Assembly (NCBI GenBank): GCA_002412795.1
Contig: DHVS01000038.1
Span: 4-64,003, forward strand
DNA from: a bacterium UBP2_UBA5202
GTDB lineage: Bacteria > Edwardsbacteria > AC1 > EtOH8
DNA length: 64,000 nucleotides
Direction: 5' to 3'
Under the pieces are notes generated by a model that was not told where the DNA came from, did no database searches, and saw nothing but the letters and a program-made list of their open reading frames with translations. A program made the translations under genes and the position numbers. This document shows, piece after piece, positions 2,774 through 38,700 of this stretch. Within the stretch, counting starts at the first letter, position 1; each line of letters opens with the position of its first letter.

Positions 2774-4258
2774 TCAGGAAACTTTTGTTCCGGTAATCAT
2801 CCCGGCCGCGATCCGTCCCGACTGGTAAATGGTCGGCAGACCCGAGCCGGGATGGGTGCCGCCGCCCACCAGGTAGCAGTTCCTGAATTCCTCAAAACGG
2901 TTGTGGGGTCTGAAGGACAGCATCTGGGTTATCTTGTGGCTGAGGTTGAAGGTGGCCCCGTTATAGATGTTGTATTCATGCTGCCAGTCGGCCGGGGTGA
3001 TCACCTTCTCCACCTCGATGTGCTGTTCCAGGTCCTTCAGCTCGGTCTTGTCCTGGATGATCCTGATCACCAGGTCGCGGAAGCCCTTCTTTTCCTTGGC
3101 CCAGTCTATCCCCGAGGTCTGATTGGCGATGGGCACCAGCACGTAGATGGCAGACTTCCCGGCCGGGGCCAGGGTGGGGTCGGTGATGCTGGCGTTCTGG
3201 ATGTAGACCGACGGGTCCCGGGGCAGGGTCTTGGTCCTGACTATCTCGTCCACGTTGTCCCGGTAGCTTTGGGCGAAGATCACGTTGTGGTGCGGGATGT
3301 CGTACTTCCTGTTCACCCCCAGGTAAAGCATGAAGGTGGAGCAGGAATACTCCATCTTCTTCAGCCTGGCGTCGGTGTATTTTTTCCGGTCCTCCGGCTT
3401 GACGATACTGCTCATGGCCCAGGCGAAATCGGGGTTGATGATCACCTGGTCGGCCTCTATGGACCGGCCGTTCTCCAGCAAAACGCCTTTGGCAGTGCGG
3501 TCCTTAACCTGCAATTGTTTCACCGGGGTGTTCAGGTGAATCCGTCCGCCGTCCTCCTGGATCACTTTGGCCATGGCTTCAGATATCTTATTGAGCCCGC
3601 CGATGGGGTGGTAGATGCCGAACTTGTGCTCGATGATCGACAATATGGTGAAGGTGGCCGGGCACTGCCAGGGCGACATCCCCAGGTACTTGGCCTGGAA
3701 GGTCATGGCGATCCGCAGGTCGTCGTGGGTGAAGTAGCTGGCCAGCCGGTCATAGACCGAGGCGAATGGATCCAGCCGGGGGATGGCTTTCAGGAAGCGC
3801 GGTTTCAGGTACGAGAGCAGGCTGTCATACGGCACCTTCAAACAGGGATAGACCCGGTCGAACTTCTTTCCCTCGTCCTTTTTGAACCGCAGATAATTCC
3901 GTCCGTCCCCGGGGAAGGCCCGCTCGACCTCCTCCACCATCCTTTTTTCATCGCCGGTGGGGAAGAAGTCCCTGCCGCCCTCGAACCGCAGGCGGTACAT
4001 GGGATCAATGCGTTTCAGGTCCAGGTACTTGTTCATGTCCCGGCCGGCGTCGGCGAAGGACTGCTCCAGCACCTCCAGCAGCATCAGGAAAGTGGGGCCG
4101 GTGTCAAAGGTGTACTGGTCCAGCCTGATGGCCTGGTTGCGGCCGCCCACCCGGCTGTCCTTTTCGAATATATCCACCTGATAGCCTTTGTTGGCCAGCT
4201 GCATGCCGGCGGTCAGCCCGCCCGGCCCGGCCCCGATGATGATGACTTTTTTGCTCAT
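2774..4258 (-). CDS. FAD-dependent oxidoreductase of the phytoene desaturase (CrtI) family
   Basis: N-terminal IIGAGPGGL dinucleotide-binding motif and a 494-aa length typical of CrtI-family amine oxidases. Confidence 0.75.
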   Translation of the reverse strand: MSKKVIIIGAGPGGLTAGMQLANKGYQVDIFEKDSRVGGRNQAIRLDQYTFDTGPTFLMLLEVLEQSFADAGRDMNKYLDLKRIDPMYRLRFEGGRDFFPTGDEKRMVEEVERAFPGDGRNYLRFKKDEGKKFDRVYPCLKVPYDSLLSYLKPRFLKAIPRLDPFASVYDRLASYFTHDDLRIAMTFQAKYLGMSPWQCPATFTILSIIEHKFGIYHPIGGLNKISEAMAKVIQEDGGRIHLNTPVKQLQVKDRTAKGVLLENGRSIEADQVIINPDFAWAMSSIVKPEDRKKYTDARLKKMEYSCSTFMLYLGVNRKYDIPHHNVIFAQSYRDNVDEIVRTKTLPRDPSVYIQNASITDPTLAPAGKSAIYVLVPIANQTSGIDWAKEKKGFRDLVIRIIQDKTELKDLEQHIEVEKVITPADWQHEYNIYNGATFNLSHKITQMLSFRPHNRFEEFRNCYLVGGGTHPGSGLPTIYQSGRIAAGMITGTKVS

Positions 4259-4697
4259 ATAATTTTACTTTTTCAAATAAGCTTGTTCTCGGTAAAACTG
4301 TAATACCCCAGCCTAACTATTATCAGATGATCCCATGCACTAATTGTAAGGGATAGGGCCAAGATGATTTTGCCCATTAACCAGTTAGCTGAACTGGGCC
4401 AGCAGCGGCAACCCAGAAACTATTATCTTCGGTGAATTGATTAGCCAATGTATTTTCCGTCAAGTGATAATTCTTATGCAGAAAAGTAAAAAACAATTAC
4501 ATTATTGCATTGAAACAAAGGAAGGTATTATTATTGCCGCAAAAAGCATACAGGAAACAAAGGCACCTAAAAACCAAACAAGCGCTTTTTTCTTTTCACC
4601 ATGCCTAATACATATTATGCCTTTTACTAAAGCATATACAAAAAATACAATAAATATTAATTGCATATATTTATCGTCTCCAATCTTTGTTAAATAT

Positions 4698-5378
4698 TCA
4701 TATCAACTTGTTTTCAGCGAAACTATAGTGCCCGGCCCTTCCCACTATGATGTGGTCCAGCACCCGGATGTCCAGCGCCTTGGCCACGCTGACGATGGAG
4801 TCGGTCAGCTGCCGGTCCTCCGGCGAGGGCTGGCAGTGCCCGCTGGGGTGGTTGTGCACCAGGATCAGCCCTGCGGCGTGGAGGTTCAGGGCCTCCTCGA
4901 TGATCCGCCGGGGATAGACCGCCGCCTTGTCCACCGTGCCCTGGTTGATGGTCTTGTATCTCAGCACCTCGTTCTTGGTGTTGAGATAGATGCAGAGGAA
5001 GGCCTCGTTGGGCAGTCCGGCCATCTTGGTCCGGGCGAAAGCCAGCACCGACTGGGGCGAGGAGAGGGCGTCCCTGGACATCATCCCGTCCGCCAGGTAC
5101 TGCTCGGACAGGTGCTTGGCCAGCTTGATCAGCACCGCCGGGGATGTTCCTATACCCTTGACCTTCTCCAGGTCTTCGGGGGTGGCGTCCAGCACTCCGG
5201 CCAGGCCGTCGAACCTGGCGATCAATTCCTTGGCCAAGGGCTTTACATCGCGGGGGGGCAGGGCGTAGGTCAGCAGCAGTTCCAGCAGCTCGTAGTCGTG
5301 CAGGCCTTCTCCGGCGGTCCGGCGGAACTTTTCCTTCAGTCTCTGGCGGTGCCCCGATGTCTGTTCTTTCTGGTCCAT
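4698..5378 (-). CDS. radC: RadC-family JAB domain protein
   Basis: HNHPSG JAMM motif and a helix-hairpin-helix N-terminal region. The start is placed at the internal Met (MDQKEQ...) rather than the ORF-track start at 5468. Confidence 0.75.
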   Translation of the reverse strand: MDQKEQTSGHRQRLKEKFRRTAGEGLHDYELLELLLTYALPPRDVKPLAKELIARFDGLAGVLDATPEDLEKVKGIGTSPAVLIKLAKHLSEQYLADGMMSRDALSSPQSVLAFARTKMAGLPNEAFLCIYLNTKNEVLRYKTINQGTVDKAAVYPRRIIEEALNLHAAGLILVHNHPSGHCQPSPEDRQLTDSIVSVAKALDIRVLDHIIVGRAGHYSFAENKLI

Positions 5379-5478
5379 GTTTCGTATTTTTAAATTCCCG
5401 TCCCGAAGCGGAAACCGGCTTGCATATTTGCCTGGTTTGTTATACAATTTGTCAGAACCATTTTTCAAACGGAGGCTT

Positions 5479-6825: not shown

Positions 6826-7244
6826 AGTTTTCTGCCGGATTGCATAACGCGGTGGCGGATCATCATCCCTGTGGCCTTTGACATTCCGTGCCGGAGATAG
6901 AACGGTTGCACACTTTTGTCGCACAGCAGATCTACCATATACAGGCCTTTTAATCTCTTCAGCATTCTTTTGACCAACTCCCTTCCGATGCCCTGATTCC
7001 GGTATTCGGGCAAGACCTCTAACAGCGGAATATAAGCGCATAGCACACAGTCGCTGATGGCGGTGATGAAGCCCACCACCCCATTCGTTCGCTCATCGAC
7101 TGCCAGGACAACTTGATCGCTGTTTTTTAACAAAAGCAAATGAGTCCGGGGCGAAGGCTTTTTAGGCCAGCCTTCAAAGAACCCCCGAAGCATAGAAGGG
7201 GTTATCCCTTTAAGTGATGATGTGTATGCAATCATAGGCATCAT
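6822..7244 (-). CDS. GNAT family N-acetyltransferase
   Basis: Acetyl-CoA binding motif RNQGIGRELV. A 4-nt ATGA overlap with the downstream AlkD-like gene suggests translational coupling. Confidence 0.7.
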   Translation of the reverse strand: MMPMIAYTSSLKGITPSMLRGFFEGWPKKPSPRTHLLLLKNSDQVVLAVDERTNGVVGFITAISDCVLCAYIPLLEVLPEYRNQGIGRELVKRMLKRLKGLYMVDLLCDKSVQPFYLRHGMSKATGMMIRHRVMQSGRKL

Positions 7245-7417
7245 ATAGGATATATTAAATCATAACAGGTCGTTATATGCAACTAAATAATGAAAAAATT
7301 TAGATCTTTTTACCATGATCAAAAGGCCCCGGTCCTCCGCCTCTTTCTATAATGTCTGGCGGGATAATAAATAAAACAACTGTTGACTTTTAAAGCCTCC
7401 ATCACTATAATAATCCC

Positions 7418-8548
7418 ATGAACAATTCTGAACGCCGCCTGTTCCCGTTCCCGGCCATCATCGGCCAGGACAAGCTGAAGACCGCCTATCTGGCCAACCT
7501 GGTCAACCCGCGCATAGGGGGTCTGCTGATCTCCGGGCCCAAGGGCACCGGCAAGAGCACCATTGTGCATTCTATTTCCTCTGTGCTGCCGGAATATCAC
7601 GCGGTGCAGGACTGCCCCTTCAACTGTGATCCGGCCGACCCGTCCCGGTTCTGTTCTCTGTGCCGGGAGAGGACCGCCCACCGGGCGCTGACCAGGCCGA
7701 TGCGGATTATCAACCTGCCGCTGTCCTGCAGCGAGGACCGGCTGGTGGGCAGCATCGACGTGGAGAAACTGCTCAAGACCGGCGAGAAGGCGGTGCTGCC
7801 GGGCATCCTGGGGGCGGCCAACGGCAACATCCTTTACGTGGACGAGGTCAACCTGCTGCCCGACCACTTGGTGGACGACATCCTGGACGCGGCGGCCTCG
7901 CACTGGAACACCATCGAGCGGGAGGGGGTGTCCGTCTCCCACCCGGCCGGCTTCGTGCTGGTGGGAACCATGAACCCGGAGGAGGGCGACCTGAGGCCCC
8001 AGATCCTGGACCGCTTCCCGCTCTGCGTCCGGATAGAGACGGTGAAGGACCCGGGACAACGGGTGGAGATAGTCCGGGCAAACCTGATGTTCGAGGACCA
8101 TCCGGAGGAATTCTTTAAGCGATACGAGACCCGGTCGGAAGCGCTGAAAGCCGCCATCATAACCGCCAGGGGACTGCTGCCGGGGGTGACGGCCGGCGAC
8201 GAGGCGGTGGCGGCGGTGGCCCGCTCCTGCGCCGAGCTGAAAGTGGACGGCCAGCGCCCGGACATAGTGATCATAAAGACCGGCCTGACCCTGGCCGCCC
8301 TCAACGGCCGCACCCAGGCCGCCCGCGAAGACATAATGCTGGCGGCCGAGCTGGCCCTGGTGCACCGCACCCGGGACGGCGGCCTGCTGGAACCGCCCTC
8401 GCCCGATGAGATAGCCCGTAGTTTCGGCAAACATGCGGCAGCGGTCCCGGCCGCCAAAGACCTGGCGGATGGGGACAGCACCCAGTCATCCGGACAACCG
8501 TCATCTGAGGCCGGTTCCGGCGCCGATGGCGTAAAAAAAAACAAATAA
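7418..8548 (+). CDS. ChlI/BchI-like AAA+ ATPase (Mg-chelatase subunit I family) with a Cys-rich insert
   Basis: Walker A GPKGTGKST, Walker B ILYVDEVN, and sensor motifs of the ChlI family. It carries a CPFNCD...CSLC four-Cys insertion. Confidence 0.8.
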   Translation: MNNSERRLFPFPAIIGQDKLKTAYLANLVNPRIGGLLISGPKGTGKSTIVHSISSVLPEYHAVQDCPFNCDPADPSRFCSLCRERTAHRALTRPMRIINLPLSCSEDRLVGSIDVEKLLKTGEKAVLPGILGAANGNILYVDEVNLLPDHLVDDILDAAASHWNTIEREGVSVSHPAGFVLVGTMNPEEGDLRPQILDRFPLCVRIETVKDPGQRVEIVRANLMFEDHPEEFFKRYETRSEALKAAIITARGLLPGVTAGDEAVAAVARSCAELKVDGQRPDIVIIKTGLTLAALNGRTQAAREDIMLAAELALVHRTRDGGLLEPPSPDEIARSFGKHAAAVPAAKDLADGDSTQSSGQPSSEAGSGADGVKKNK

Positions 8549-8586
8549 AGGCCAAACTGCAGGCACTGCAAACGGCCAGGCTTAAT

Positions 8587-9675
8587 GTGCAGCCGGGGAA
8601 TGCCGACAGGAATATCCTGAGGAGCCTCTTTAACAAGGTCAAACGCCGGTTCACCAAGCCCAAGAAAATCGCAGTAATTTCCCCGGGCCAGCCCATTCCG
8701 CTGTTCGACCCCTCCCGCAGCCTGACTGCCAAGCTCAAAGGCGGGTTCCTGAAATTCCTGAAAAAGATCGGAAAGACCAAGACCCGTTCGTTCAAGGGAA
8801 GCCCCAGGCGGAGGACCGTGGTAACCGAGCGCTCGGGACGCAACGTCAAGGAGGTGCGTTACCAGCCGGGCGAGAATACCTTGGCCCCGGTGCAGACCCT
8901 GATCAAGGCCGCCGGGCAGGGCAGGTACGAATTCAGATCCAGGCGGTTCTCCATCGGCAGCCGTGATCTGGTGGGCTGGGAAAAAGCGGAAAGGCAGAGC
9001 CTGACCCTGGTGCTGCTGGCCGACGTCAGCCATTCCACCCATCCCTATATCAACGTGATGGCCGAGATCATCAACTCGCTGACCGGCTATTTCCGGGTGA
9101 ACAAGGACCGGATCGGGTTGATCTCGCTGTCCGGCGCCCAGGCCCGGATCCTGAACCACCCCACCCACAATTACCGGGTGGTCACTAAAAGCCTGCTGTC
9201 GCTGGCCATCCAGGGGCAGACCCCGCTGGCCGACGGGATGCAGAAGGCCCTGGCCATGATCCGCCTACAGAAGCAACGTTCGCCGGGTTCCTCCAGCCTG
9301 GTGATCGCCCTGACCGACTGCTATCCCGAACCGCTGACCTTCCATTCACCCGACCCCTTCGACGAGCCGGCTTACCGGGAATCGGTGCGGGCCGCTAAGC
9401 TCTTCCGCAAGGGCAAGGTTCCGCTGCTGCTGATAAACCCGACCTTCAGTCATCATGAGGAGAAGGATTATTTTCCGGGGGAGAAGCTTTCGGTGATGAT
9501 CGAAAGCGAAAGCGGGGGGAGGCTGATAAAATTATACCGTCCCATGGAATTCGCCCAGACCCAGCCCAGCCAGGGAATTCCGCCCAGCCACCGCGACATT
9601 CTCCGGATCATCAGCGGGGTGGAGGAAATGATAGGCAGCCGTAAACTGGGGGAGGACCGCCGGATAGCGGGCTGA
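8587..9675 (+). CDS. vWA domain protein (ChlD C-terminal-like partner of the ChlI-like ATPase)
   Basis: The von Willebrand A fold is indicated by a MIDAS-like motif (LVLLADVSHST) and by the gene's position immediately downstream of the AAA+ gene. Confidence 0.65.
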   Translation: MQPGNADRNILRSLFNKVKRRFTKPKKIAVISPGQPIPLFDPSRSLTAKLKGGFLKFLKKIGKTKTRSFKGSPRRRTVVTERSGRNVKEVRYQPGENTLAPVQTLIKAAGQGRYEFRSRRFSIGSRDLVGWEKAERQSLTLVLLADVSHSTHPYINVMAEIINSLTGYFRVNKDRIGLISLSGAQARILNHPTHNYRVVTKSLLSLAIQGQTPLADGMQKALAMIRLQKQRSPGSSSLVIALTDCYPEPLTFHSPDPFDEPAYRESVRAAKLFRKGKVPLLLINPTFSHHEEKDYFPGEKLSVMIESESGGRLIKLYRPMEFAQTQPSQGIPPSHRDILRIISGVEEMIGSRKLGEDRRIAG

Positions 9676-9704
9676 GGGATCGTCCCCAAAACATAAATTT
9701 CAGG

Positions 9705-9742
9705 CAAATACAAAACCCCGCCGCTGGCGGGGTTTTGTTTGG
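9705..9742. terminator. Bidirectional rho-independent terminator
   Basis: Hairpin aaaaccccgccgctggcggggtttt with T-runs on both strands, between convergent genes. Confidence 0.6.
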
Positions 9743-9755
9743 CTATGGGCAACGC

Positions 9756-10313
9756 TTACTTGCCGGCGGTATTTTCTCCCAGGCTGGCCATGATCTTGGC
9801 GGCCTGTTCCTTGATCCCGGAGGCCTTGGTAACGGCTTCAAACAGATTACCGGCCTTGAATTCGTCCTGGGCCTGTTTCCAGGTTCCGGGCATGGCATTG
9901 ACGGCGGCTTTGGCATCGGCCAGCACAGATTTATCAACGCCTTTGGCATTGGCCACGGCGGTCTTGACACCGGCGATCAGCTTGGGCATCTCGGCTGACA
10001 GGGCCTTCCAATCCTGGGGCAGGGCGGCCTTTTTGGCCTCGATGGCGGTGCCCAGGTCCTGGACCTTGGCCGGAAGGTCCTTGGCGGAAGCCAAAGCGGC
10101 CTTGTAGTCACCCTTCTCAAATGCCTGTTTGGCCCCGGCCAGGGCGGCTTCCATCTCCGCCAGCTGTTCGGGCACGAACTTGGCGGCTTCGTTCCGGACG
10201 GTGTTCATGGCCTCCTCGGCGGTTTTGATGGCCAGCTGGGCCGGGGTCTTGCTCAGGCTGCAGGACATGGCCAGGAACGCAACGCAAAAAAGAACAGGGA
10301 TAAGTTTTTTCAT
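9756..10313 (-). CDS. Secreted Ala/Lys-rich lipoprotein-like protein
   Basis: Start at the internal MKKLIPVLFCVAFLAMSC (signal peptide plus Cys), preceded by an AGGAGAA RBS. The rest is low-complexity Ala/Lys/Glu-rich helical sequence. Confidence 0.5.
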   Translation of the reverse strand: MKKLIPVLFCVAFLAMSCSLSKTPAQLAIKTAEEAMNTVRNEAAKFVPEQLAEMEAALAGAKQAFEKGDYKAALASAKDLPAKVQDLGTAIEAKKAALPQDWKALSAEMPKLIAGVKTAVANAKGVDKSVLADAKAAVNAMPGTWKQAQDEFKAGNLFEAVTKASGIKEQAAKIMASLGENTAGK

Positions 10314-10390
10314 GTTTTCTCCTGATTGGTTTATTGTTGGGTTGATGTAAAAATTGAGTATATACCCGGAAACCGGGGTTGTCAAGATAA

Positions 10391-10741
10391 TTATTTCCGG
10401 TGCGGATCTTTTTGTTTTCTTTTGCTTTGTTTTAAGCCCGGCCCCGGCCACCGGAATCTTTCAAGATCAATATTTTCATGAAGGCCCAAAGCCACTCCTT
10501 CGCTTTCCAGCAGGGCCCGCTGTTCCTCGTAGCCGTATCCGGGTTTAAGGGAGATCGTTCCCCGGCTGTTGATCACCCTGTGCCAGGGAAGCTGTTCCTT
10601 GCCCGAGCTGGAATGAAGCAGCCAGATGACCGCCCGGGCGCCTCTGGGATTGCCGGCCAGGGCCGCGATCTGGCCGTAGGTGGCTACTTTGCCGCGGGGG
10701 ATGCGTTTGATGAGGGAGATTATCTGGGAGGAGAAGGTCAT
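10391..10741 (-). CDS. Alkyltransferase-like protein (ATL), a catalytically inactive MGMT-fold DNA damage sensor
   Basis: MGMT DNA-binding domain with PWHRV in place of the PCHRV active site, the hallmark of Atl1/YbaZ. Confidence 0.7.
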   Translation of the reverse strand: MTFSSQIISLIKRIPRGKVATYGQIAALAGNPRGARAVIWLLHSSSGKEQLPWHRVINSRGTISLKPGYGYEEQRALLESEGVALGLHENIDLERFRWPGPGLKQSKRKQKDPHRK

Positions 10742-11682: not shown

Positions 11683-12054
11683 TTACGGGGTATTTTCCTT
11701 CAGACCAACGATCATTTTCCATAACATCCGGCCCACTTCCTGGGATAGGGCATATAACGTGTTAAAATCTTCAGTCTTGAGATATCCAATATCCTTTGCT
11801 AACATTAATTGGGTTTGGAATTCTGCCAGTGATCCGTTGGCGGTATAAAGAAATTGAATATATTCTTTTCTGTTTTTCCGGCCATAACCTTCCGCAATGT
11901 TTGAAGGAATTGAAACCGAGCACCTTCTGATCTGTGAGGTTAAACCATAATCTTCATTGGCTGGAAATAATTTGGTGATCTGGTATAAAGCTACACATAA
12001 TTTGTAGGACTTTTGCCACACTATCAGGTCGGCAAAACTCTTTGTTGGTTGCAT
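11683..12054 (-). CDS. Four-helix-bundle protein (23S rRNA intervening-sequence / Avd-like family), copy 1
   Basis: Family signature W....L......T..FP........QIRR...SI..NIAEG. It lies between the SPFH and NfeD genes. Confidence 0.8.
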   Translation of the reverse strand: MQPTKSFADLIVWQKSYKLCVALYQITKLFPANEDYGLTSQIRRCSVSIPSNIAEGYGRKNRKEYIQFLYTANGSLAEFQTQLMLAKDIGYLKTEDFNTLYALSQEVGRMLWKMIVGLKENTP

Positions 12055-12103: not shown

Positions 12104-13381
12104 CTATACGCTCTTGGTTACCTTAAGCGTCATGCCTTTTACTTCCAATACCTTGATCTTGGTGCCTTCGGCGATCTCGGTCTCCGACCAGGCGCTCCAG
12201 TGGGTTCCTTCCACAAACACGCTTCCGCCGTCCTTGTTCACCAGGGTCCGGGCGTCGCCCTCCTGGCCCAGCAGGCCCTTGTCGCCGGAGACGGGTTTGG
12301 TCCTCAATGTCTTGATGGACAGCCAGACCCCGATGATGAAGAAGGCCGCGGTGGCCGCCACCACCGGGATGATAACCTGGAGCGAGGCCCGCAGGGCCGG
12401 GTCCGGCGAGTTGAACAGCATTACCGATCCAATGAACATGGCAACTATCCCTCCTATGCTAAGTATTCCGTGCGAGGCTATTTTGACGTCCAGGATAAAC
12501 AGCACGATGGCCAGTATTATCAGCAGCATTCCGGCGTAGCTGACCGAAAGGGTCTGGAAGGCGAAGAAGGCCAGGATCAGCGAGATGGCGCCCACCACCC
12601 CGGGCAGTATGGCCCCGGGATTGGAGAACTCAAAGTAAAGGCCCAGCAGCCCCAGCATGAAGAAGATGTAGGCGATGTTGGGATCGGAGATCACGGACAG
12701 GAACCTGTCCCGCCAGTTCATCTCTACTGTCACCGTTCGGGCCAGCTTGATGTTCAGGGTCACAGTGTCCCGGTCCATGGCTATCTTCCGGCCGTCCAGG
12801 GAATCCAACAGGGCGGAGGTGTTGGGGGCCACCAGGTCAATGACTTTGCGTTTTAAGGCCTCTGTCTCGGACAGAGAGACGCTGTGGCGGACGGCGGAGT
12901 CGGCCCAGGCCACGTTGCGGCCCCGTTTCTCGGCGATGGAGCGGATGTAGGCCGCGGCGTCATTTGTTACCTTGCCGGACATGGTGCTGTCCATCTGTCC
13001 GCTCTGCCCGATGGAGACCGGGTGGGCCGCCCCGATGCTGGTTCCCGGCGCCATGGCCGCCAGGTGGGCCGACATGGTGATGAAGGCCCCGGCCGAGGCC
13101 GCCCGCGATCCCTGGGGCGCCACGAACACTATCACCGGGACCGGCGAGGCCATGATGCTCTTGATCACCTGGCGCATGGACTGGTCCAGCCCGCCCGGGG
13201 TGTCCATCTCGATGATCAGGCACTCGGCCTGCTCCGCTTGGGCCCGTTCAACGGCCTGGACCATGAACCGGGCCGAGGCCGGGCTGACGGCGCTTTCCAC
13301 CCGGGCCACCAGTACCTGGGAGGCTTCGGCCATTCCGCTAACTAAAATTAGCGAAAGAACAAACAATAACAACTTCTTCAT
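12104..13381 (-). CDS. NfeD-family membrane-bound serine protease (ClpP-fold), partner of the SPFH protein
   Basis: N-terminal ClpP-like domain, central TM helices, and a C-terminal OB-fold NfeD domain. Confidence 0.8.
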   Translation of the reverse strand: MKKLLLFVLSLILVSGMAEASQVLVARVESAVSPASARFMVQAVERAQAEQAECLIIEMDTPGGLDQSMRQVIKSIMASPVPVIVFVAPQGSRAASAGAFITMSAHLAAMAPGTSIGAAHPVSIGQSGQMDSTMSGKVTNDAAAYIRSIAEKRGRNVAWADSAVRHSVSLSETEALKRKVIDLVAPNTSALLDSLDGRKIAMDRDTVTLNIKLARTVTVEMNWRDRFLSVISDPNIAYIFFMLGLLGLYFEFSNPGAILPGVVGAISLILAFFAFQTLSVSYAGMLLIILAIVLFILDVKIASHGILSIGGIVAMFIGSVMLFNSPDPALRASLQVIIPVVAATAAFFIIGVWLSIKTLRTKPVSGDKGLLGQEGDARTLVNKDGGSVFVEGTHWSAWSETEIAEGTKIKVLEVKGMTLKVTKSV

Positions 13382-13499
13382 AATATCCTCTTCTCATGAA
13401 TACTGAATACTGAAGATAGAATGCCAGCAAAAATCTGAGATCACAAAACTATTCTGTATTCAATATTCCAAATTCAGTCTTCTGTTTTGGTCTCGAGTG

Positions 13500-14273
13500 T
13501 CAGTACTGGAAGTGCTTGATCTTCTCGCCCATCTGGCCGATCTCGGTCATGCTTTCGATGCCGATGTCCAGGTGCAGTCTGCTGAACTTCTTGGTGACCT
13601 CCCGGTCGCTCCGGTCGGTCTTGATCCCGTGGGGCACCATCGGGATGTCCGAGACCAGCAGCAGGGCGCCCCGGGCGATCTGGTTGGCGTGGCCCACGAT
13701 GAACAGGGTGGCTGTTTCCATGTCGATGGCGATGGCCGTCAGCCTTTTCAGGTATTTCTTGAAAGGCTCGTCCCATTCCCAGACCCGGCGGTTGGCGGTG
13801 TAGATCACCCCGGTGCGGTAATCCAGGTTCCGCTCCTTAAGCTTTTCCGAAACGAACTTGTGCAGTTTAAAGGAGGGCAGGGCCGGCACCTCAGGCGGCA
13901 GGTAGTCGTTGCCGGTACCCTCGCCCCTGATGGCCCCGATGGGCAGGATGAAATGGCCCAGCTCGGTGGTCTTTTTAAGCCCTCCGCATTTTCCCAGGAA
14001 CAGCACCCCCTTGGGGTGCCGGGCCACCAGCAGGTCCATGATGGTGGCGATGTTGGGGCTGCCCATTCCCAGGTTCACTATCGACAGGCCCTTGCTGTTG
14101 GTGGCGGCCTGCATCGGCCGGCCCTGACCCTTGATCTCGCAGTTGAAACGCTCGGCGAAGCGCTGCAGGTAGTCGTCGAAGTTGGTCAGCAAAATGTAAT
14201 CGCCGAACTGGTCGATCTCCATCCCGGTGTAGCGGGGCAGCCAGTTCTTTGCTATGTCTAATTTTGTCTTCAT
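13500..14273 (-). CDS. Nucleoside phosphorylase-family protein (AMP nucleosidase-like)
   Basis: PNP/UDP phosphorylase-fold motifs (GMGSPNIA, IAIDMETA). Confidence 0.65.
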   Translation of the reverse strand: MKTKLDIAKNWLPRYTGMEIDQFGDYILLTNFDDYLQRFAERFNCEIKGQGRPMQAATNSKGLSIVNLGMGSPNIATIMDLLVARHPKGVLFLGKCGGLKKTTELGHFILPIGAIRGEGTGNDYLPPEVPALPSFKLHKFVSEKLKERNLDYRTGVIYTANRRVWEWDEPFKKYLKRLTAIAIDMETATLFIVGHANQIARGALLLVSDIPMVPHGIKTDRSDREVTKKFSRLHLDIGIESMTEIGQMGEKIKHFQY

Positions 14274-14536
14274 AGTATCCTTATTTCATTTTTTGCCACA
14301 GAGCGTTGCACTGAGTTTGCCGAAGTGACTCAGAGGCACAGAGATATTTTCGGTTGGTCTTGCGGTCATCGCGAGTTTTGCTATTCCTCCAGGACAAACG
14401 AAGCGATCTGCCCGGTGGTTGTTTACGGTTGGACTGCTTCGTTTGTTTGACAGGGGGCCGTTCCCTTCGTATGCTAAGCAAGTAACTCAACTCGGGACAT
14501 GCCTCGCAGTGACTGTTCCAGCCCAGGACCTGCCCG

Positions 14537-15313
14537 TCACTTCGTTATTCCCCGTTCCGAGCCCTCGATGAACTCCACCATGTGCTTTACCTCCGGGGTC
14601 AGCTCCATCGTCTCTTTGATCCGGGTCAGGGCCTGGGTGGTGTTCAGTCCCGACCGGAAGATGATGCGGTAGGCCTGGTCCATCAGGTCGCGCTGGGCCT
14701 GGGTAAAGCCCCGCCGGGACAACCCCAGGGTGTTCAGTCCGAACATCTTCAGCGGATTGCCGAAGGCCTTGGAGTAGGGCAGGACATCCTTCTGGACCGC
14801 CGAGGCCCCGCCCACTATGGTGTGGCAGCCCACCCGGGAGAACTGGTGGACCGGGGTCAGCCCGCCGATGATGGCAAAGTCCTCTATTATGGTGTGCCCG
14901 GCCAAAGTGGCCGAGTTGGCCAGGATCACGCTGTCGCCCACCGTGCACTCATGGGCCACGTGGGAGTAGGCCATCAGCAGGCAGTTGCTCCCGATCTTAG
15001 TCACCTGGTCCTCCAGTGTCGACAGGGTGACGGTGGCGAACTCCCTCACCACGGTCTTCTCGCCGATGACCACCTTGGTCTTTGCCCCCCGGTATTTCAG
15101 GTCCTGGGTGTCGCTTCCTATCGACGCTCCGTGCCAGACCTTGCAGCCGGCGCCCAGCTCGGTCCACTTGTGGATGGCCACCGAGTCGCCGATGACGCAG
15201 TTGTCGCCCAGCACGCACTCCGGGCCGATGATGGTGAAGGGGCCGACCATGACGTTGTCGCCCAGTCGGGCGGTGGGGTCGATGATGGCAGTGGGGTGGA
15301 TTTGATTAGGCAT
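14537..15313 (-). CDS. lpxA: Acyl-ACP--UDP-N-acetylglucosamine O-acyltransferase LpxA
   Basis: The N-terminus [25 protein letters not shown] and left-handed beta-helix hexapeptide repeats throughout are typical of LpxA. Confidence 0.9.
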   Translation of the reverse strand: MPNQIHPTAIIDPTARLGDNVMVGPFTIIGPECVLGDNCVIGDSVAIHKWTELGAGCKVWHGASIGSDTQDLKYRGAKTKVVIGEKTVVREFATVTLSTLEDQVTKIGSNCLLMAYSHVAHECTVGDSVILANSATLAGHTIIEDFAIIGGLTPVHQFSRVGCHTIVGGASAVQKDVLPYSKAFGNPLKMFGLNTLGLSRRGFTQAQRDLMDQAYRIIFRSGLNTTQALTRIKETMELTPEVKHMVEFIEGSERGITK

Positions 15314-15396
15314 GGGCTAAATGAAGTAAAGGTTGTAAAATTTTCGAAGGTTGTAAATGTAAAGGAAATAAACGTCAGGTTTGGTTGTGACTCATC

Positions 15397-15624
15397 TTAG
15401 ATGTCAACAATTAATTTACGGCATGCCTGACACCTATTGGCTTCAACTTTTGGCCTTCCCAGGCCCGCTCCTGTGCCTATTTTTATACCGCCTATTGCCC
15501 ATATCCCCAAAAGCAAGCTTTTTCCTTCCTGCAGCCATTTCAAAGCATATCTGTCTCCATATATGTGGCCCCTGGCCATCTCTACCTTGCAATAAGGACA
15601 TTTCATTTTGATTTGCCTTCCCAA
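15397..15624 (-). CDS. Small zinc-ribbon protein (CPYC...CQAC), hypothetical
   Basis: A 75-aa protein with two CxxC pairs, lying in the AT-rich insert between lpxA and its duplicated 5' fragment. Confidence 0.45.
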   Translation of the reverse strand: MGRQIKMKCPYCKVEMARGHIYGDRYALKWLQEGKSLLLGIWAIGGIKIGTGAGLGRPKVEANRCQACRKLIVDI

Positions 15625-15630
15625 ATATTT

Positions 15631-15810
15631 TTAAAGAGAAACGGAATATTCAACCCGTAAGTGGCTATTTGAAACTTTTGTCGGGTGTTTGACGCAGCCG
15701 TCGCCCAGCACGCACTCCGGGCCGATGATAGTGAAGGGGCCGACCGTAACGTTTTCGCCCAAGCGGGCGGTGGGGTCTATGATGGCGGTGGAGTGGATCA
15801 GATTAGGCAT
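15631..15810 (-). pseudogene. Diverged duplicate of the lpxA 5' end (first ~41 codons plus upstream leader), truncated
   Basis: Region 15685-15810 is about 85% identical to 15190-15313 ([37 protein letters not shown] vs the LpxA N-terminus). It then diverges into a short out-of-context tail. The leader repeat gttgtaaaggttgtaaagg is also duplicated. Confidence 0.6.
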
Positions 15811-15868
15811 GGTCGAAATTATGTAAAAGTTGTAAAGGTTGTAAAGGCAATATTTTCTATTAATATCT

Positions 15869-16333
15869 TTAAAGAAGTTGAAAAACTTCCTTAACTGTTT
15901 CCAAATTATCTGTTGCGCGTTTAACAATATCTAAATCAACCCAACGTGGCTTTTCAGCTTCCTCATCATCGACAGCGTTATCGTTCAACAAGGTAAAAGT
16001 TTTAGGCTGGCAGACATAGAAAAAGTTAAACATATGATAAGCCACATCACCAGGATCCCAGTAAAAAAATTGCTCTTTGAAGTATAAAAATTCCCCAACT
16101 TCTATTTCAATGCCTGTCTCTTCACGTACCTCTCTGACCAGTGCGTCTGATAATTTTTCGGCTTGATTAATCCCACCACCAGGGAAGAACAACTTTCCGT
16201 TGCTTTTATTGCTAAGCATAAGGATCTTGCTGTCGTGGATAATTACGCCATAGACGGATGGCCTAAAAACAAGCTTTTCCGCAGGAACGCTTATTTTACC
16301 ACCTTTTATGGAATTACATTCTACGTTGGTCAT
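15869..16333 (-). CDS. NUDIX hydrolase
   Basis: NUDIX box [25 protein letters not shown]. The gene is AT-rich relative to its neighbours. Confidence 0.75.
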
Positions 16334-16349
16334 TGGTATTGACCTATTT

Positions 16350-17660
16350 TTATGTTTTCCGGTCCACCACCGCCGCGGTCAGCTCGGCCTCGCAGACCAC
16401 CTGGCCGTCCACCAGGGCCTTGCCCTCCATCTTGCAGATGCCCCGCTTGAAGGAGACCAGGTCCAATTCGAACCTCAGCTGGTCCCCGGGCATCACCGGC
16501 TTGCGGAAGCGCACCTTGTCTATGGCCGCAAAGTAAAGCAGTTTCTGGTGGTAGTTCTCCACCGAATGCAGCACCATGAACGCCCCGGTCTGGGCCAGGG
16601 CCTCCACTATCAGCACCCCGGGGAACACCGGGTGGTCCGGGAAATGCCCCTGAAAGAACGGCTCGTTGATGGTGACGTTCTTAAGACCCACCACCCGCTT
16701 GCCCTCCTCCAGCTCCAGGATCCTATCCACCATCAAAAAGGGATAGCGGTGGGGCAGCATCCCGGCGATGGCGTTGATGTCGAACACCGGGCCCTTCTTC
16801 TGGCGCTCCACCTCGTCGTAGACCTTCTTCAGTTCCTGCACCAGCTTCACATTGGAGCGGTGGCCGGATTTGATGGAGATGACGTGGGCCCGCAGCGGCC
16901 GGCCCAGCAGGGTCAGGTCGCCCAGCAGGTCCAGGATCTTGTGCCGCACGAATTCGTCGGGGTAGCGCAAAGGCTCCTTGTTCTCGATCCCCTTTTCCCC
17001 GATCACCACCGCCGACTGCAGGCTGCCGCCCTTGATCAGGCCCTGGGCCCGCAAATGCTCCACGTCCCGGGCCAGGCAGAAGGTGCGGGCATCGGCCAGC
17101 TCCTTGTCAAAGGTCTCCCCGCTGATGGGGAAGGAGGCGTACTGGCTGCGCAGGATATGGTGCTCAAAGTCGATGGTAAAGCTGATCCTCAGCTCATTGC
17201 TGGGGCTGGCCACCAGCTGGACGCTGCCGTCGTTGACCGAGACCACCTTGGGCAGGTCAAAATACTGCCGGGGGGCGTCCAGCTCCACCGTGCCGGCCTT
17301 TTTCAGGATGTCCAAAAAGGGGCGGGAGGAGCCGTCGCCGATGGGCGGCTCGTTGTTGTCCATCTCCACCCGGATGTTGTCTATCTCCAGCGAGGCGATG
17401 GCCGCCAGTACGTGCTCCACGGTGTGGGCCTTCACCATCTGGCCGTTGAAATCCCTGCCCAAAGTGGTGCCCCGGGCGGTCTCCACCACGTACTCGATCA
17501 GGGCCGGGATCTCCGGGCTCTGGGGGATGTCGGTGCGGATGAAGCGGATCCCGGTATCGGCCGGGGCCGGCTTGAAGGTGAGGTTGGTCATGTTGCCGGT
17601 GTGGACCCCGACCCCGGAAAAACGGACCTCGCTGACTATTGTCTTCTGCAGTTTGGGCAT
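16350..17660 (-). CDS. lpxC: Bifunctional UDP-3-O-acyl-GlcNAc deacetylase LpxC / 3-hydroxyacyl-ACP dehydratase FabZ fusion
   Basis: The N-terminal 280 aa resemble LpxC (HTGN..., HTVEH...). The C-terminal 150 aa resemble FabZ (LPHRYPFLMVDRI...GHFP..P.FPGVL). The start is taken at the internal MPKLQKT. Confidence 0.85.
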   Translation of the reverse strand: MPKLQKTIVSEVRFSGVGVHTGNMTNLTFKPAPADTGIRFIRTDIPQSPEIPALIEYVVETARGTTLGRDFNGQMVKAHTVEHVLAAIASLEIDNIRVEMDNNEPPIGDGSSRPFLDILKKAGTVELDAPRQYFDLPKVVSVNDGSVQLVASPSNELRISFTIDFEHHILRSQYASFPISGETFDKELADARTFCLARDVEHLRAQGLIKGGSLQSAVVIGEKGIENKEPLRYPDEFVRHKILDLLGDLTLLGRPLRAHVISIKSGHRSNVKLVQELKKVYDEVERQKKGPVFDINAIAGMLPHRYPFLMVDRILELEEGKRVVGLKNVTINEPFFQGHFPDHPVFPGVLIVEALAQTGAFMVLHSVENYHQKLLYFAAIDKVRFRKPVMPGDQLRFELDLVSFKRGICKMEGKALVDGQVVCEAELTAAVVDRKT

Positions 17661-17726
17661 TAAAAAGCATCTCCTAAAATGGATGGTGTAAATATAATAA
17701 TACCCCAAAAACAGGGGGTTGTCAAA

Positions 17727-18012
17727 TGATTTTAGCATCTGTAATTCAGACAGTGGAGAGCTAATCGGGGCGGATTTGTCCAGAGGCATATATGCCAAGA
17801 ATAGAGCATATGGAAATACCCATTTGCAATTCCAAATTGCCACGAGCTTTAGCTCGTGGGTTAGGTTAGGATCTGGGAAATATCCTCCGGGGTTTTAACC
17901 CCTTTATCCTGGGGCTAAAGCCCAAATATCTGACTTTTTATTGCCACGACCTGAAGGTCGTGGCAATAAAATATATAGATCCCACTGCTGTCTGAATCAC
18001 TATTTTAGCATT
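17727..18012. other. Structured element of about 285 bp bounded by inverted repeats (MITE-like or structured ncRNA) in the lpxC / znuC divergent intergenic region
   Basis: ttttagcat direct repeats plus gtaattcagacagtgg / ccactgctgtctgaatcac inverted repeats enclose at least three internal GC hairpins (ccacgagctttagctcgtgg; gccacgacctgaaggtcgtggc; ggggttttaacccc). Confidence 0.4.
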
Positions 18013-18225
18013 TATTAGCTTGACAAAGACTGGTTTGTAAATTACAATAAATAATCCGGCCGCCCCGGCTGGGAAAGACAGGAGCTCCTCCGCTGAAGCT
18101 TTGGCGCTTGAAGGAGTCCGGCATTGAAGCGCAAGCGGATCAACATGATTAAATTTAATACCAGAGGAAATAAAAAATCCTGTAAATCCTGTCAAAAATG
18201 TTCCAATTAAATATCAAATAATTCA

Positions 18226-19056
18226 ATGAACGATACCGGACAGACAGCAACCCCCTCCTGCGGCTCCTGCTGCACCAAGCTGGTGCGGGTGGGGGTCAAG
18301 CTGGGCAACAACCCGGTGCTGGAGGACATCAACCTGCACCTGCACTGCGGCCAGCTGACGGCCATCGTCGGCCCCAACGGGGCCGGCAAGAGCACTTTGC
18401 TCAGGACCATTTTGGGCGAGGTCCCGCACTCCGGGCACGTCCATTTCCTGGACTCGGGCAAAAAGCGCCCCGACAAGCCCTTCATCGGCTATGTGCCCCA
18501 GCGGCTGGAGTTCGACCCCTCGGCGCCCCTGACGGTGGCCGACCTGTTCGGCGCGTCCCTGCAAAAACGCCCGGCCTGGATGGGTTTGGCCAAGGACCAG
18601 CGCAAAATTGTCGGGGAGGCGCTGAATGCGGCCGGGGCGGGGCACCTGTTGGACAGCAAGCTGGGCCAGCTTTCGGGCGGAGAACTGCAGCGGGTGATGC
18701 TGGCTTTGGCCTTGACCCCGCTGCCCGACCTGCTGCTTTTAGACGAGCCGGTCTCCGGGGTGGACATGGCCGGGGTGGACGCCTTTTACGAAATGGTGTC
18801 GCAGCTTCGGAAACGCTACCATCTGTCCATCATCCTGGTCACCCACGACCTGGCGGCGGTGGCCGGCTTCGCCGACCGGATGATATTCCTGAACAAAAAA
18901 ATAATCGCCCAGGGCTCGCCGGCCCAGGTGCTGGGCCATCCTTTGGTCCAGCAGATCTTCGGACGGCTGAAACCGGAGCTGAAACAGGGGGTCCCGGAGG
19001 CGGCCGAAAGTGTTCCCCACCACTGCATCGCCTGCGAACTGGAGGCCAAGCCATGA
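18226..19056 (+). CDS. Metal (Zn/Mn-type) ABC transporter ATP-binding protein, ZnuC-like, with a Cys-rich N-terminus
   Basis: Walker A GPNGAGKST, the LSGGE signature, and Walker B LLLDEP. The CGSCC N-terminal segment is unusual. Confidence 0.8.
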   Translation: MNDTGQTATPSCGSCCTKLVRVGVKLGNNPVLEDINLHLHCGQLTAIVGPNGAGKSTLLRTILGEVPHSGHVHFLDSGKKRPDKPFIGYVPQRLEFDPSAPLTVADLFGASLQKRPAWMGLAKDQRKIVGEALNAAGAGHLLDSKLGQLSGGELQRVMLALALTPLPDLLLLDEPVSGVDMAGVDAFYEMVSQLRKRYHLSIILVTHDLAAVAGFADRMIFLNKKIIAQGSPAQVLGHPLVQQIFGRLKPELKQGVPEAAESVPHHCIACELEAKP

Positions 19057-24382: not shown

Positions 24383-24763
24383 ATGAAGGTCGAATTATTA
24401 TATAAAGATGAGAGTTATGCTATAGTAGGAGCATGTTTCAATGTATATAAAAATATGGGGAGTGGGTTTTTAGAGCCAGTTAATCAGGAATGTTTGGAGA
24501 TTGAATTTGAAAGACAAAAAATTCCATTTGAGCCGCAGAAAGAACTTGCCTTAAAATATCTGGACAGAACATTAAAGCAAAAGTATAAGCCGGACTTTGT
24601 TTGTTACGGAAAAATAGTGGTGGAGATCAAAGCGGTAGAAAAACTCATTGATGATCACAGGTCACAAATGTTGAATTACCTTAACGCCACCGGTTTTAAA
24701 TTGGGCTTGCTGGTTAATTTCGGCCACCACCCCAGGATGGAAAACGAAAGATTTATCCTTTAA
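24383..24763 (+). CDS. GxxExxY protein (PD-(D/E)xK-like, PF13366 family)
   Basis: Motif IVGACFNVYKNMGSGFLEPVNQECLEIEF. The gene is AT-rich and inserted between the asrA-like and asrB-like genes. Confidence 0.8.
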   Translation: MKVELLYKDESYAIVGACFNVYKNMGSGFLEPVNQECLEIEFERQKIPFEPQKELALKYLDRTLKQKYKPDFVCYGKIVVEIKAVEKLIDDHRSQMLNYLNATGFKLGLLVNFGHHPRMENERFIL

Positions 24764-28229: not shown

Positions 28230-28766
28230 ATGAAATATTTCAAAGTATTTTTATCGTTGGTCATTGTCACTACTGGTTGTGCCAGCACAACCCGGAGAGT
28301 GACCCCAGCAAAAATTGAGTTGACGGAAACATTAATTGTTGAACAGCCTAAGGAAAATAAAATAAGTCAAGAGGCTTTTATAATAAAGGTTTCTGAATTA
28401 AAAGGGAAAATAAGGATTTTAAACAGCAGGCAGTCCAATTCGCAAATATTATCAATAAATGACCAATTAGATTCTTTAGTCGTTAGCGAAGATCTGGCAC
28501 GTGATAGGTCAATCAATAAAGGATTGGGGTGGGGTCTTGTTGCCGGCATTTTACCAGCGCCTTTTATTTATGTGAAAGAAAACGGCACTGAATTTGGGAG
28601 TTTAATATCAGTGGTTTCCATATCGTCTTTGATTTGGTTAGGTACTACTACCGGTTGGTTGATTGGTCAGCATAAATGTAAATACATTCAAAAAAGGACT
28701 TATCAAAAACTCATAGACATAATTAACGAGCACAACAGTTTGGTTGGTTGGCAAAATAAACCATAA
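28230..28766 (+). CDS. AT-rich hypothetical lipoprotein
   Basis: Signal peptide with an IVTTGC lipobox. The gene is low-GC and sits between two hydrogenase membrane-subunit genes. Confidence 0.45.
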   Translation: MKYFKVFLSLVIVTTGCASTTRRVTPAKIELTETLIVEQPKENKISQEAFIIKVSELKGKIRILNSRQSNSQILSINDQLDSLVVSEDLARDRSINKGLGWGLVAGILPAPFIYVKENGTEFGSLISVVSISSLIWLGTTTGWLIGQHKCKYIQKRTYQKLIDIINEHNSLVGWQNKP

Positions 28767-30947: not shown

Positions 30948-31367
30948 ATGACGGTTAAGAGATTTGAGGATCTGAAAATCTGGCAACAGGCCAAAGAGCT
31001 GGCCAACTTGATTTATGATTTAACCGGAACAAACGCTTTCAAAGGCGACAGGAGTCTTACAGATCAATCCCGCCGGGCGGCAGTTTCGGTAATGGCCAAT
31101 ATTGCCGAGGGATTTGAGAGAGGCAGCAACAAAGAATTCATTCAGTTTTTGTTTATTGCAAAAGGTTCGTGCGGAGAACTGAGAAGCCACCTGATATTAG
31201 CTCAAGACCGCTGTTATATAACCCCGGTACAACATACGCAAGCCAGAGAAATGGCTTTAGGGATTTCCACGATGGTGTATAACTTCATCACATATTTACA
31301 AAACACTAAAGTTAAAGGCAAGAGGTGCCAAACCTCTTCAACAATTTCAACAAAAGCAACATCTTAA
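30948..31367 (+). CDS. Four-helix-bundle protein (IVS/Avd-like), copy 2
   Basis: The same family signature as copy 1 (IWQQA...RAAVSVMANIAEGFERGS). Confidence 0.8.
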   Translation: MTVKRFEDLKIWQQAKELANLIYDLTGTNAFKGDRSLTDQSRRAAVSVMANIAEGFERGSNKEFIQFLFIAKGSCGELRSHLILAQDRCYITPVQHTQAREMALGISTMVYNFITYLQNTKVKGKRCQTSSTISTKATS

Positions 31368-34243: not shown

Positions 34244-34657
34244 ATGGCGACTTTTAAGAAATTTGAAGAAGTGGATATTTGGATAAAAGCGCGTGAATTG
34301 ACCAAGCGGATTTACGAAGCCTCTCGCAAAGGGGCTTTTGCCAAGGATTATTCTTTGGGCGACCAGATGAGGCGGGCATCGGTGTCGATCATGTCAAATA
34401 TTGCCGAGGGTTTTAATCGTGGCGGGAACAAAGAGCTTGTCCAATATTTGGCAATCGCCAAAGGATCTGCGGCAGAGATACAAAGCCAGTTATATGTCGC
34501 ACTTGACCAACAGTATATACCCAAAGAAGTATTTAACGATTTGTACAATTTAACAGACCAAATTGCAGCCGGAATATTTTCTTTTATAATTTATCTCAAT
34601 AAAAGCAATATCAAAGGGATAAAATATAAATACGCCCAAATTCCAAATGGTAAATAA
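34244..34657 (+). CDS. Four-helix-bundle protein (IVS/Avd-like), copy 3
   Basis: Family signature (DIWIKA...[19 protein letters not shown]). Confidence 0.8.
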
Positions 34658-38510: not shown

Positions 38511-38568
38511 CCCTATTTTAATCACAGATAGACGTTTAAAAATAAACATATACCGGATAAATAATGAA

Positions 38569-38700
38569 GAAATCTTTGACATTGATCTTATGTACGGCAT
38601 TGGCGATTCCCTTTGCCGTAACTTCCTGCGGGCCGGGCGGCCAGCAGATCAAGATCGGGGTGGCCGGGGGCAATAAGCGCCAAATTTAAACCGGGGAGAA
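38569..38700 (+). pseudogene. Truncated diverged copy of the 5' end of the downstream LivJ-like SBP gene
   Basis: MKKSLTLILCTALAIPFAVTSCGPGGQQIKIGVAG... The 45 nt at 38625-38669 are nearly identical to 39508-39552. The frame stops after GGNKRQI. Confidence 0.5.

Follow-up and report, generated by a model that had tools for sequence, protein, structure and literature searches.

A truncated second lpxA start in a lipid A operon

We analysed a 64,000-nt stretch of contig DHVS01000038.1 (assembly GCA_002412795.1, Edwardsbacteria genome UBP2_UBA5202; hereafter the window) and focused on the junction of a fused lpxC-fabZ gene and lpxA, where small cargo genes lie between these two members of the lipid A operon and the 5′ end of lpxA occurs twice. 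All genes of the locus are on the minus strand, and in the order of transcription they run lpxC-fabZ, a NUDIX hydrolase gene, leader B, a truncated lpxA relic (lpxA′), a spacer, a DUF6487 gene, leader A and full-length lpxA. The conserved left flank, lpxC-fabZ (16350..17663, minus strand; Pfam LpxC and FabA; NCBIfam NF009667, 546 bits), and the conserved right flank, lpxA (14537..15313, minus strand; NF003657, 341 bits against a cutoff of 226; TIGR01852, 325 bits, above cutoff), both score well above NCBIfam equivalog cutoffs, in agreement with an earlier reading of this DNA (hereafter the original prediction) that had described lpxA as preserved intact. Similarity to every relative stops within a few nucleotides of the lpxC-fabZ stop codon.

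The longest direct repeat of the window pairs 15193..15350 (copy A, minus strand) with 15690..15847 (copy B, minus strand), over 158 ungapped nucleotides at 85% identity and with a spacing of 497 nt; BLAST aligned 147 nt of the two copies at 87.8%. On the coding (minus) strand the repeat spans positions −37 to +121 of lpxA, and upstream of −37 the two leaders can be aligned only by way of a 9-nt gap. Copy A consists of the proximal leader and the first 121 nt of the functional gene, and copy B of leader B, with two TTTACAAC motifs, and codons 1-40 of lpxA′, where homology breaks off at +121. The duplication of about 165 bp at about 85% identity that the original prediction had described is thus borne out, leader and gene start included, although its limits (15190-15375 and 15685-15850) were slightly generous and the coding part comprises 40 codons, not 41.

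The relic forms the beginning of a 59-aa open reading frame (ORF; 15631..15810, minus strand) made up of the 40 in-frame lpxA codons, 19 unrelated codons and a stop, a pseudogene-like fragment that LpxA equivalog models match over its first ~45 positions only and far under cutoff, and that other assemblies annotate as a 59- or 98-aa gene. A 65-nt spacer (15625..15689, minus strand) leads from the +121 breakpoint to the DUF6487 gene; it contains a weak terminator-like hairpin (15641-15658) that folds no better than shuffled sequences, and a search for similar sequence in related loci found none. The two copies bracket just 314 nt and one gene, the DUF6487 zinc-ribbon gene (15397..15606, minus strand; Pfam PF20097, E = 1e-16). 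The expected zinc ribbon is thus borne out; the expected length of 75 aa holds for a start at the TTG at 15624, and the ATG used by gene callers and homologues gives 69 aa. The NUDIX gene (15869..16333, minus strand; Pfam NUDIX, E = 3e-17) is the first cargo gene, starts 16 nt past the fabZ stop and falls outside the segment that the repeats enclose. As predicted, it is low in GC, at 0.39 (0.37 at third codon positions, GC3), and DUF6487 has 0.45 (GC3 0.44), compared with 0.605 ± 0.026 (GC3 0.84) in 30 backbone genes.

Intact lpxA is preceded by the extended leader A (15314..15396, minus strand; ~80 nt), which carries a AACCAAACCTGAC element and TTTACAAC repeats. All four occurrences of TTTACAAC in the window (first noted as gttgtaaa) are within the two lpxA leaders, and this confinement led us to reject it as a genome-wide promoter motif. 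A sigma-70 pattern was matched by leader B only, and an Rfam search of 13000-18500 returned no RNA element in the leader and one chance-level match elsewhere.

Copy B differs from copy A by 6 synonymous and 5 non-synonymous codon changes, with no frameshifts. Six of the 11 differences in its first 108 nt are states of full-length alleles of other lineages, as is Gly38, and the remaining five are private, each toward A or T, a bias that decay would be expected to leave in a genome of such high GC3 (0.84-0.9). With the lpxA 5′ ends of close relatives copy A shares 92-96% identity, and copy B reaches at best ~90-92% with those of three related loci (L006, L019 or L036; loci found in relatives are numbered with L). 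These sequence comparisons show that copy B descends from a different lpxA allele and is not a fresh copy of A.

We consider it extremely improbable that the duplication is an assembly chimera of two co-occurring strains. Metagenome assemblies can merge or join strain variants, and several related contigs (L018, L036 and L037) terminate at or near the repeated segment. Nevertheless, the same 3.4-kb arrangement is 100% identical at the nucleotide level in five independent assemblies from different samples and pipelines, all encoding the exact LpxA protein, which excludes an assembly artefact as its source; moreover, the copies are 15% diverged with unique sequence between them, and analogous structures lie in long contigs of relatives (L038, 223 kb).

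A variable cargo slot between fabZ and lpxA

Relatives were gathered by an LpxA protein search of genome and metagenome collections. In distant relatives (L008, L016 and L025, with LpxA 66-70% identical) and in other phyla, lpxC-fabZ and lpxA are separated by ~40 bp, which indicates that their direct adjacency is the ancestral state. Among lineages with 84-92% LpxA identity the gene content of the gap differs in almost every contig, and at least 12 related loci carry differing co-oriented cargo precisely between the fabZ stop and the lpxA start, with all genes in the direction of the operon and mostly of low GC. On the left, every array is bounded by the fabZ stop; the right boundary lies at −37, −20, −10, −1 or 0 relative to the lpxA ATG, depending on the lineage. 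In this Edwardsbacteria/TA06-like lineage the fabZ-lpxA gap serves as a hypervariable cargo slot. The lpxA 5′ segment is single-copy in L006, L019, L020, L021, L010 and L042, and distant relatives lack the duplication, such that the arrangement in the window is not the old, fixed feature shared with relatives that had been considered alongside the original prediction.

Cargo of the slot includes alcohol dehydrogenase-like, MBL-fold-like, outer-membrane-like, alpha/beta hydrolase-like and ketopantoate reductase-like proteins in L006, and a membrane protein followed by the same dehydrogenase and reductase in L037 (enzyme-family names for L006, L037 and L036 are our reading of ORF translations). 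A DNA methyltransferase, an SfiI-like endonuclease and an XRE-family regulator occupy the slot in L019, L042 and L050, and a small membrane protein, an XRE gene and a 71-aa/188-aa nucleotidyltransferase-like pair, resembling a toxin-antitoxin system, occupy it in L010. L007 has a 23S-rRNA-IVP four-helix protein, the P0029 contig has ADH, patatin and MCRA genes, and L033 has two NUDIX genes, with a homologue of the NUDIX gene of the window (79% identical) upstream of lpxA. DUF6487 homologues occur in the slot once in L018 and twice in L038; more distant ones do not adjoin lpxA, and a functional tie between DUF6487 and lpxA was rejected given homologues at 58-66% identity in unrelated contexts. 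The ~80-nt leader of the A type also stands behind other cargo (ketopantoate reductase-like or DUF6487) in L006, L036, L037 and L038; distant relatives lack it, as do L019-L021, in which the cargo reaches the ATG.

Neither the conserved lpxA block nor the XRE cargo protein had a match in a viral contig collection, and a phage origin was rejected on these grounds. PADLOC gave only two matches, a weak one to NUDIX (PDC-S07) and a HIT/ThsC-like one, which are insufficient for a defence island. The region upstream of the XRE module (L038 8140-8400, L010 3083-3350, L019 2301-2510) contains many AAAC(R)NGTTT(R)TTT-like repeats, which are probably operators. Further afield, a cassette-array-like group of small, co-oriented genes in an unrelated organism (L047, 4485-6341) comprises a Y1_Tnp-like gene, a distant DUF6487 homologue and two GNAT acetyltransferases.

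Recurrent lpxA relics and a near-identical strain

Besides the window, four arrays (L036, L018, L038 and L041) contain a truncated lpxA start followed by further cargo. The homology breaks at +116 in L036 and L018, before the 71-aa/188-aa module, and at +108 in L038 and L041, before the XRE module, compared with +121 for the relic in the window; the sequences that follow the three breaks share no motif. A protein search with the 59-aa relic returned only two candidates, as found through a word index, one of which (P0002) led to the L038 array. At the left edge of the XRE module there is also a ~15-nt remnant (AGTGCG..GGACG) resembling lpxA +93 to +108, even in arrays without a called relic, and this resemblance suggests that relics may be trimmed off over time.

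The slot array of L038 is wholly different from that of the window, although the two strains are near-identical. After fabZ it continues with a first DUF6487 gene and a leader reaching to about −1, 21 unassigned nucleotides, a 58-nt relic of the fabZ 3′ end and a HIT gene, and then with a leader and lpxA′ (108 nt), an XRE gene, a TPR protein gene, a second DUF6487 gene and a leader with intact lpxA. The fabZ relic (7479-7536) is 95% identical to 7078-7135, and the two DUF6487 genes (span 7163-10421) are separated by 3 kb and match at 96.7% over 214 nt. The array is made of stacked units, each with pieces of one or both conserved flanks, and its direct repeats (the fabZ 3′ duplicate and the DUF6487 pair) could delete or circularise the cargo between them. 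Integration specific to lpxA, as the original prediction implied, does not account for the fabZ 3′ relic, which an lpxA-specific integrase would not produce.

Sequence identity between L038 and the window is 97% across lpxC-fabZ and the ABC transporter genes upstream, falls to 88-95% in lpxA and the beginning of the gene that follows, and stands at 99-100% over some 3.5 kb downstream, from ~14080 down to ~10500. The transition lies within the 5′ part of a PNP-family gene (14080..14273, minus strand), where sliding identity to L038 rises from 87-96% to 99-100% and the imported or divergent tract ends on its right side. The right side of the slot runs into lpxA homology, and the divergence from L038 fades over ~1.2 kb. 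A peak of divergence around the slot is the pattern expected from homologous import of divergent flanks together with cargo. The alternative offered in the original prediction, a recombination scar between two alleles, fits better than its preferred island, as seen from the states of other lineages in copy B and the divergence peak at the slot relative to a near-clonal strain.

Upstream of the slot, an RND efflux pair of 4.1 kb separates lpxC from the ABC transporter in L038 and is absent from the window. Upstream of lpxC in the window (17836-17971) there are palindromes resembling repetitive extragenic palindromic (REP) elements (ATTGCCACGAGC...GCTCGTGG) with a perfect 17-nt inverted repeat (TTTTATTGCCACGACCT/AGGTCGTGGCAATAAAA); this REP-like motif has only three copies in the window.

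Relics at other genes

A similar architecture was found at unrelated genes. A 41-aa ORF (38564-38689, plus strand) repeats codons 1-35 of a periplasmic-binding-protein gene (39444-40604), and the two copies enclose an MNT/HEPN toxin-antitoxin pair of low GC (38706-39427). The copies share a 43-nt core of 100% identity (38626-38668 and 39506-39548) preceded by a signal-peptide half that is very different. An AT-rich and diverged relic of the RadC C-terminus (4273-4377, minus strand; ~40% amino acid identity over 45 aa) lies directly upstream of the next gene, with a low-GC 54-aa membrane ORF (4502-4666) between it and intact radC (4698-5468, minus strand). In L009 (2745-3965), from the same metagenome-assembled genome (MAG) as L006, nfeD is followed by a 325-aa cargo gene and then by a relic of ~50 codons of the NfeD C-terminus (3746-3907), directly before a Band_7 gene; the corresponding junction in the window holds a 23S-rRNA-IVP gene (11683-12054, minus strand) instead. 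The same scan of ~100 kb of loci from unrelated phyla returned paralogue matches only. Relics at unrelated genes fit a general process better than one specific to lpxA.

Small low-GC, co-oriented genes are also wedged into GC-rich hydrogenase/antiporter and other clusters, and there are ~17 low-GC islets in the 64 kb. Those at 11683-12054 (minus strand), ~30948-31367, ~34244-34657, ~24383-24763 and ~28230-28766 (all plus strand) include three PF05635 23S-rRNA-IVP four-helix proteins, one PDDEXK_3 protein and an unannotated 178-aa ORF.

Search for recombinases and recombination sites

No recombinase Pfam family was found in the cargo of the window (NUDIX, lpxA′ and DUF6487) or among the Pfam marks for the cargo of L038, L041, L042, L050, L051 and the P0029 contig, and no integrase, transposase or other recombinase was present among the called or long ORFs of the window. 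The site-specific recombinase envisaged by the original prediction was therefore not encountered in the 64 kb or in related cargo. Integron cassettes were defined by attC sites, that is, imperfect palindromes with RYYYAAC...GTTRRRY cores after each cassette, along with an IntI integrase and attI. There were no attC-like core pairs at cassette borders, the sole matches being inside the NUDIX coding region, and counts of such pairs in seven related arrays were within the range of shuffled sequences. An integron was rejected, with zero attC-like pairs at the borders and no integrase found in the window. Potential hairpins at the borders and in the lpxA breakpoint region folded no better than shuffles, which led us to reject an IS200/IS605-like or other hairpin-guided insertion as well.

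Proposed mechanism and alternatives

The lpxA repeat is genuine; it is a recombination scar of a kind that recurs, in a rapidly evolving slot of an essential operon, and not a self-mobile island. Relics of both flanks and a divergence peak at the slot are present, and the searched data contain no recombinase genes and no att- or attC-like structure. Additive, homology-anchored recombination between strains with different slot contents is the reading that we favor, with somewhat better than even confidence. Homologous recombination by the host, with the two conserved and essential flank genes as anchors, would turn over the slot contents. In most exchanges both flanks would pair and the cargo would be replaced cleanly; where only one does, the incoming DNA would have its free end joined illegitimately inside the flank-gene copy of the recipient. 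Alternatively, a circularised fragment carrying cargo and ~160 bp of the gene end could integrate by a single crossover. Either route would add cargo and leave a truncated relic beside an intact, imported gene end.

Applied to the window, homology-anchored addition would have kept an older unit (NUDIX, leader B and lpxA′) and joined a second unit (DUF6487, leader A and the lpxA 5′ end) to it at +121, with the 59-aa lpxA′ ORF as a probable decaying relic. lpxA would survive because the incoming unit supplies a complete leader and 5′ end, and since only events that spare both essential genes survive and the gap is 40 nt, viable illegitimate joints would be biased into the gene that is being supplied intact. 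The order of events, a RecA-dependent route, illegitimate end-joining and uptake of DNA from relatives are the parts of this scheme that we infer. The island with a replacement segment in the original prediction stands insofar as an essential gene gained DNA at its 5′ end, with an intact leader and 5′ end downstream and a truncated relic upstream, but this is not an integrative island.

The illegitimate joint has a laboratory precedent in homology-facilitated illegitimate recombination (HFIR), in which foreign DNA is joined at microhomologies of 3-10 bp beside a single homologous anchor, as recounted in PMC6382021, citing de Vries and Wackernagel 2002. Judged by that account, addition at lpxA would have in common with HFIR a gain of DNA beside one homologous anchor, an illegitimate far joint with possible short microhomology, and recombination between diverged relatives. 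HFIR, as that source presents it, was shown in the laboratory with competent model species and usually deletes recipient DNA; here we have an uncultured MAG lineage in which part of the anchor was kept as a relic. Several points weigh against homology-anchored addition. Three distinct junctions fall within 13 nt (simulated p = 0.0009 with uniform placement over the whole of lpxA, and 0.013 over its first 200 nt), and generic illegitimate joining does not predict such clustering. The +116 junction is common to L018 and L036 though their lpxA′ parts are only ~75% alike, and their cassette region is far more alike than this, at 91% over the joint 526 nt. Possible microhomology at the left junctions, relative to relic-free copies of the modules in L010, amounts to only 3-5 nt (CTG; GGxCG), the 43-nt perfect core of the binding-protein copies amid unrelated sequence resembles an att core, and a close strain with an empty site, in which a lone lpxA would come straight after NUDIX, was not found. 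The inspection for recombinases covered 64 kb of this genome only.

With regard to the clustering, mean pairwise identity of lpxA rises from 0.83 in nt 1-60 to 0.93 in nt 61-120, and nt 439-488 are better conserved than nt 61-120. Speculatively, the breaks may lie just past the first well-conserved block through a combination of two factors, a minimum of conserved homology that units need in order to spread and selection against longer LpxA fragments.

The same clustering speaks for a rival account, in which a recombinase whose gene lies elsewhere in the genome would carry out site-specific integration and use lpxA around +100 to +125 as its attachment site for non-autonomous mini-cassettes that carry a surrogate leader and 5′ end. 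Three different cassettes breaking lpxA within 13 nt, the +116 junction in two lineages with divergent lpxA′ parts, the perfect 43-nt core between unrelated arms, and the restoration of the target gene, as in dusA islands (PMC4482086), would all be accounted for. We regard it as unlikely, since the breakpoints are close but not identical and no common motif follows them, no cargo and no part of the window contains an integrase, borders lack hairpins and attC-like sites as far as searched, and boundaries beside intact lpxA range from −37 to 0. In addition, relics also derive from the 3′ ends of fabZ, RadC and NfeD and from the 5′ end of the binding-protein gene, without shared sequence. The analogy to integrative elements that duplicate tRNA 3′ ends, drawn in the original prediction, fails on similar grounds, with repeats that bracket 314 nt and leave NUDIX outside, no integrase found and boundaries that vary from −37 to 0.

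Duplication in situ, that is, a long target or tandem duplication formed when DUF6487 was inserted, followed by decay of the relic and a later swap of the functional copy with another allele, would explain the target-insert-target structure, which matches published long target duplications (PMC2853133), and is consistent with decay, as all five private changes in copy B are to A or T, and with the clear exchange of lpxA alleles between strains. It needs two steps, however, since B has six states of other alleles (and Gly38) and A has clade-typical ones, and uniform decay cannot yield a binding-protein relic with an unrelated signal-peptide half next to 43 identical nucleotides, making this a fairly unlikely account. 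Less credence still is given to a dedicated and hitherto undescribed mechanism in these Edwardsbacteria/TA06-like genomes, a doubtful reading in which small cassettes without promoters would be stacked into operons at the points where conserved genes begin or end. Such a mechanism might rely on a trans-acting enzyme or on a cassette-borne homology arm of ~60-160 bp, with the replacement gene end keeping essential operons intact, again a doubtful proposition; in effect it would form an integron-like cargo array anchored in core genes instead of attI/attC, which we find equally hard to credit.

The locus shows that accessory genes can build up in the tight, essential lipid A operon of a bacterium from an uncultured phylum and leave it undisrupted, since every added unit comes with a gene start of its own. 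Relics are dated bookmarks of successive insertions, such that the order and source of gene gains become readable in MAGs. If the breakpoint clustering reflects an enzyme, and not selection or homology constraints, it would point to a new cassette-capture mechanism.

Comparison with known systems

Replacement-type flexible genomic islands, such as O-antigen and capsule loci, hold unrelated gene sets at one position between conserved core flanks. The slot resembles them in having unrelated gene sets at one position among strains, and in flank divergence that is raised and decays with distance; the window and L038 are conspecific-like downstream (99-100%), with different arrays and lpxA at 88-95% identity. 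It differs in size (0.5-5 kb), in its location in an essential lipid A operon, in its mixture of small co-oriented genes and in the gene-end relics left by additive events.

SXT/R391 at prfC is an integrase-mediated island that inserts in the 5′ end of a gene. Islands with dusA-specific integrases likewise target a protein gene at its 5′ end and leave it restored (PMC4482086). Features in common with the lpxA locus are insertion in the 5′ end of a conserved gene, an incoming promoter or leader with the 5′ coding end, direct repeats of the target that bracket the insert, and restoration of the target gene, lpxA being full length and above equivalog cutoffs. However, dusA and prfC islands span several kb or more and have their own tyrosine integrase by the att site and one fixed crossover, whereas the insert here is 0.3 kb, no recombinase lies beside a would-be att site, the repeats do not surround the whole island, and boundaries vary, with junctions at +108, +116 and +121.

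The closest published pattern is insertion with long target duplication, described by Nobusato et al. (2000) and by Furuta, Abe and Kobayashi (2010, PMC2853133), in which restriction-modification (RM) systems are flanked by target duplications of 30-420 bp and lack mobility genes. Most of the documented cases come from naturally competent species (PMC2853133). The likeness lies in a low-GC insert, a repeat that overlaps the end of a flank gene and far exceeds the duplications made by transposases, at 158 bp here and thus longer than 30 bp, and is single-copy in relatives without the insert, and an insert of less than 20 kb with no mobile-element genes in or beside it. RM systems, the classic cargo, sit in the same slot in L019, L042 and L050, but without a called flanking relic. 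In the window the cargo is the 69-aa DUF6487 gene rather than an RM system, as the insert encodes DUF6487 only and has no homologues of R or M genes, and the copies are 85-88% identical and from different alleles, compared with ~93-100% for the cases tabulated in PMC2853133. The site is the 5′ end of an essential gene, arrays are stacked with relics of both flanks, and three junctions fall within 13 nt. The pattern thereby extends insertion with long target duplication, so far mainly known for RM systems, to other small cargo and stacked arrays, and what it adds to the published pattern is non-RM cargo, repeat copies from different alleles, stacking and clustered breakpoints.

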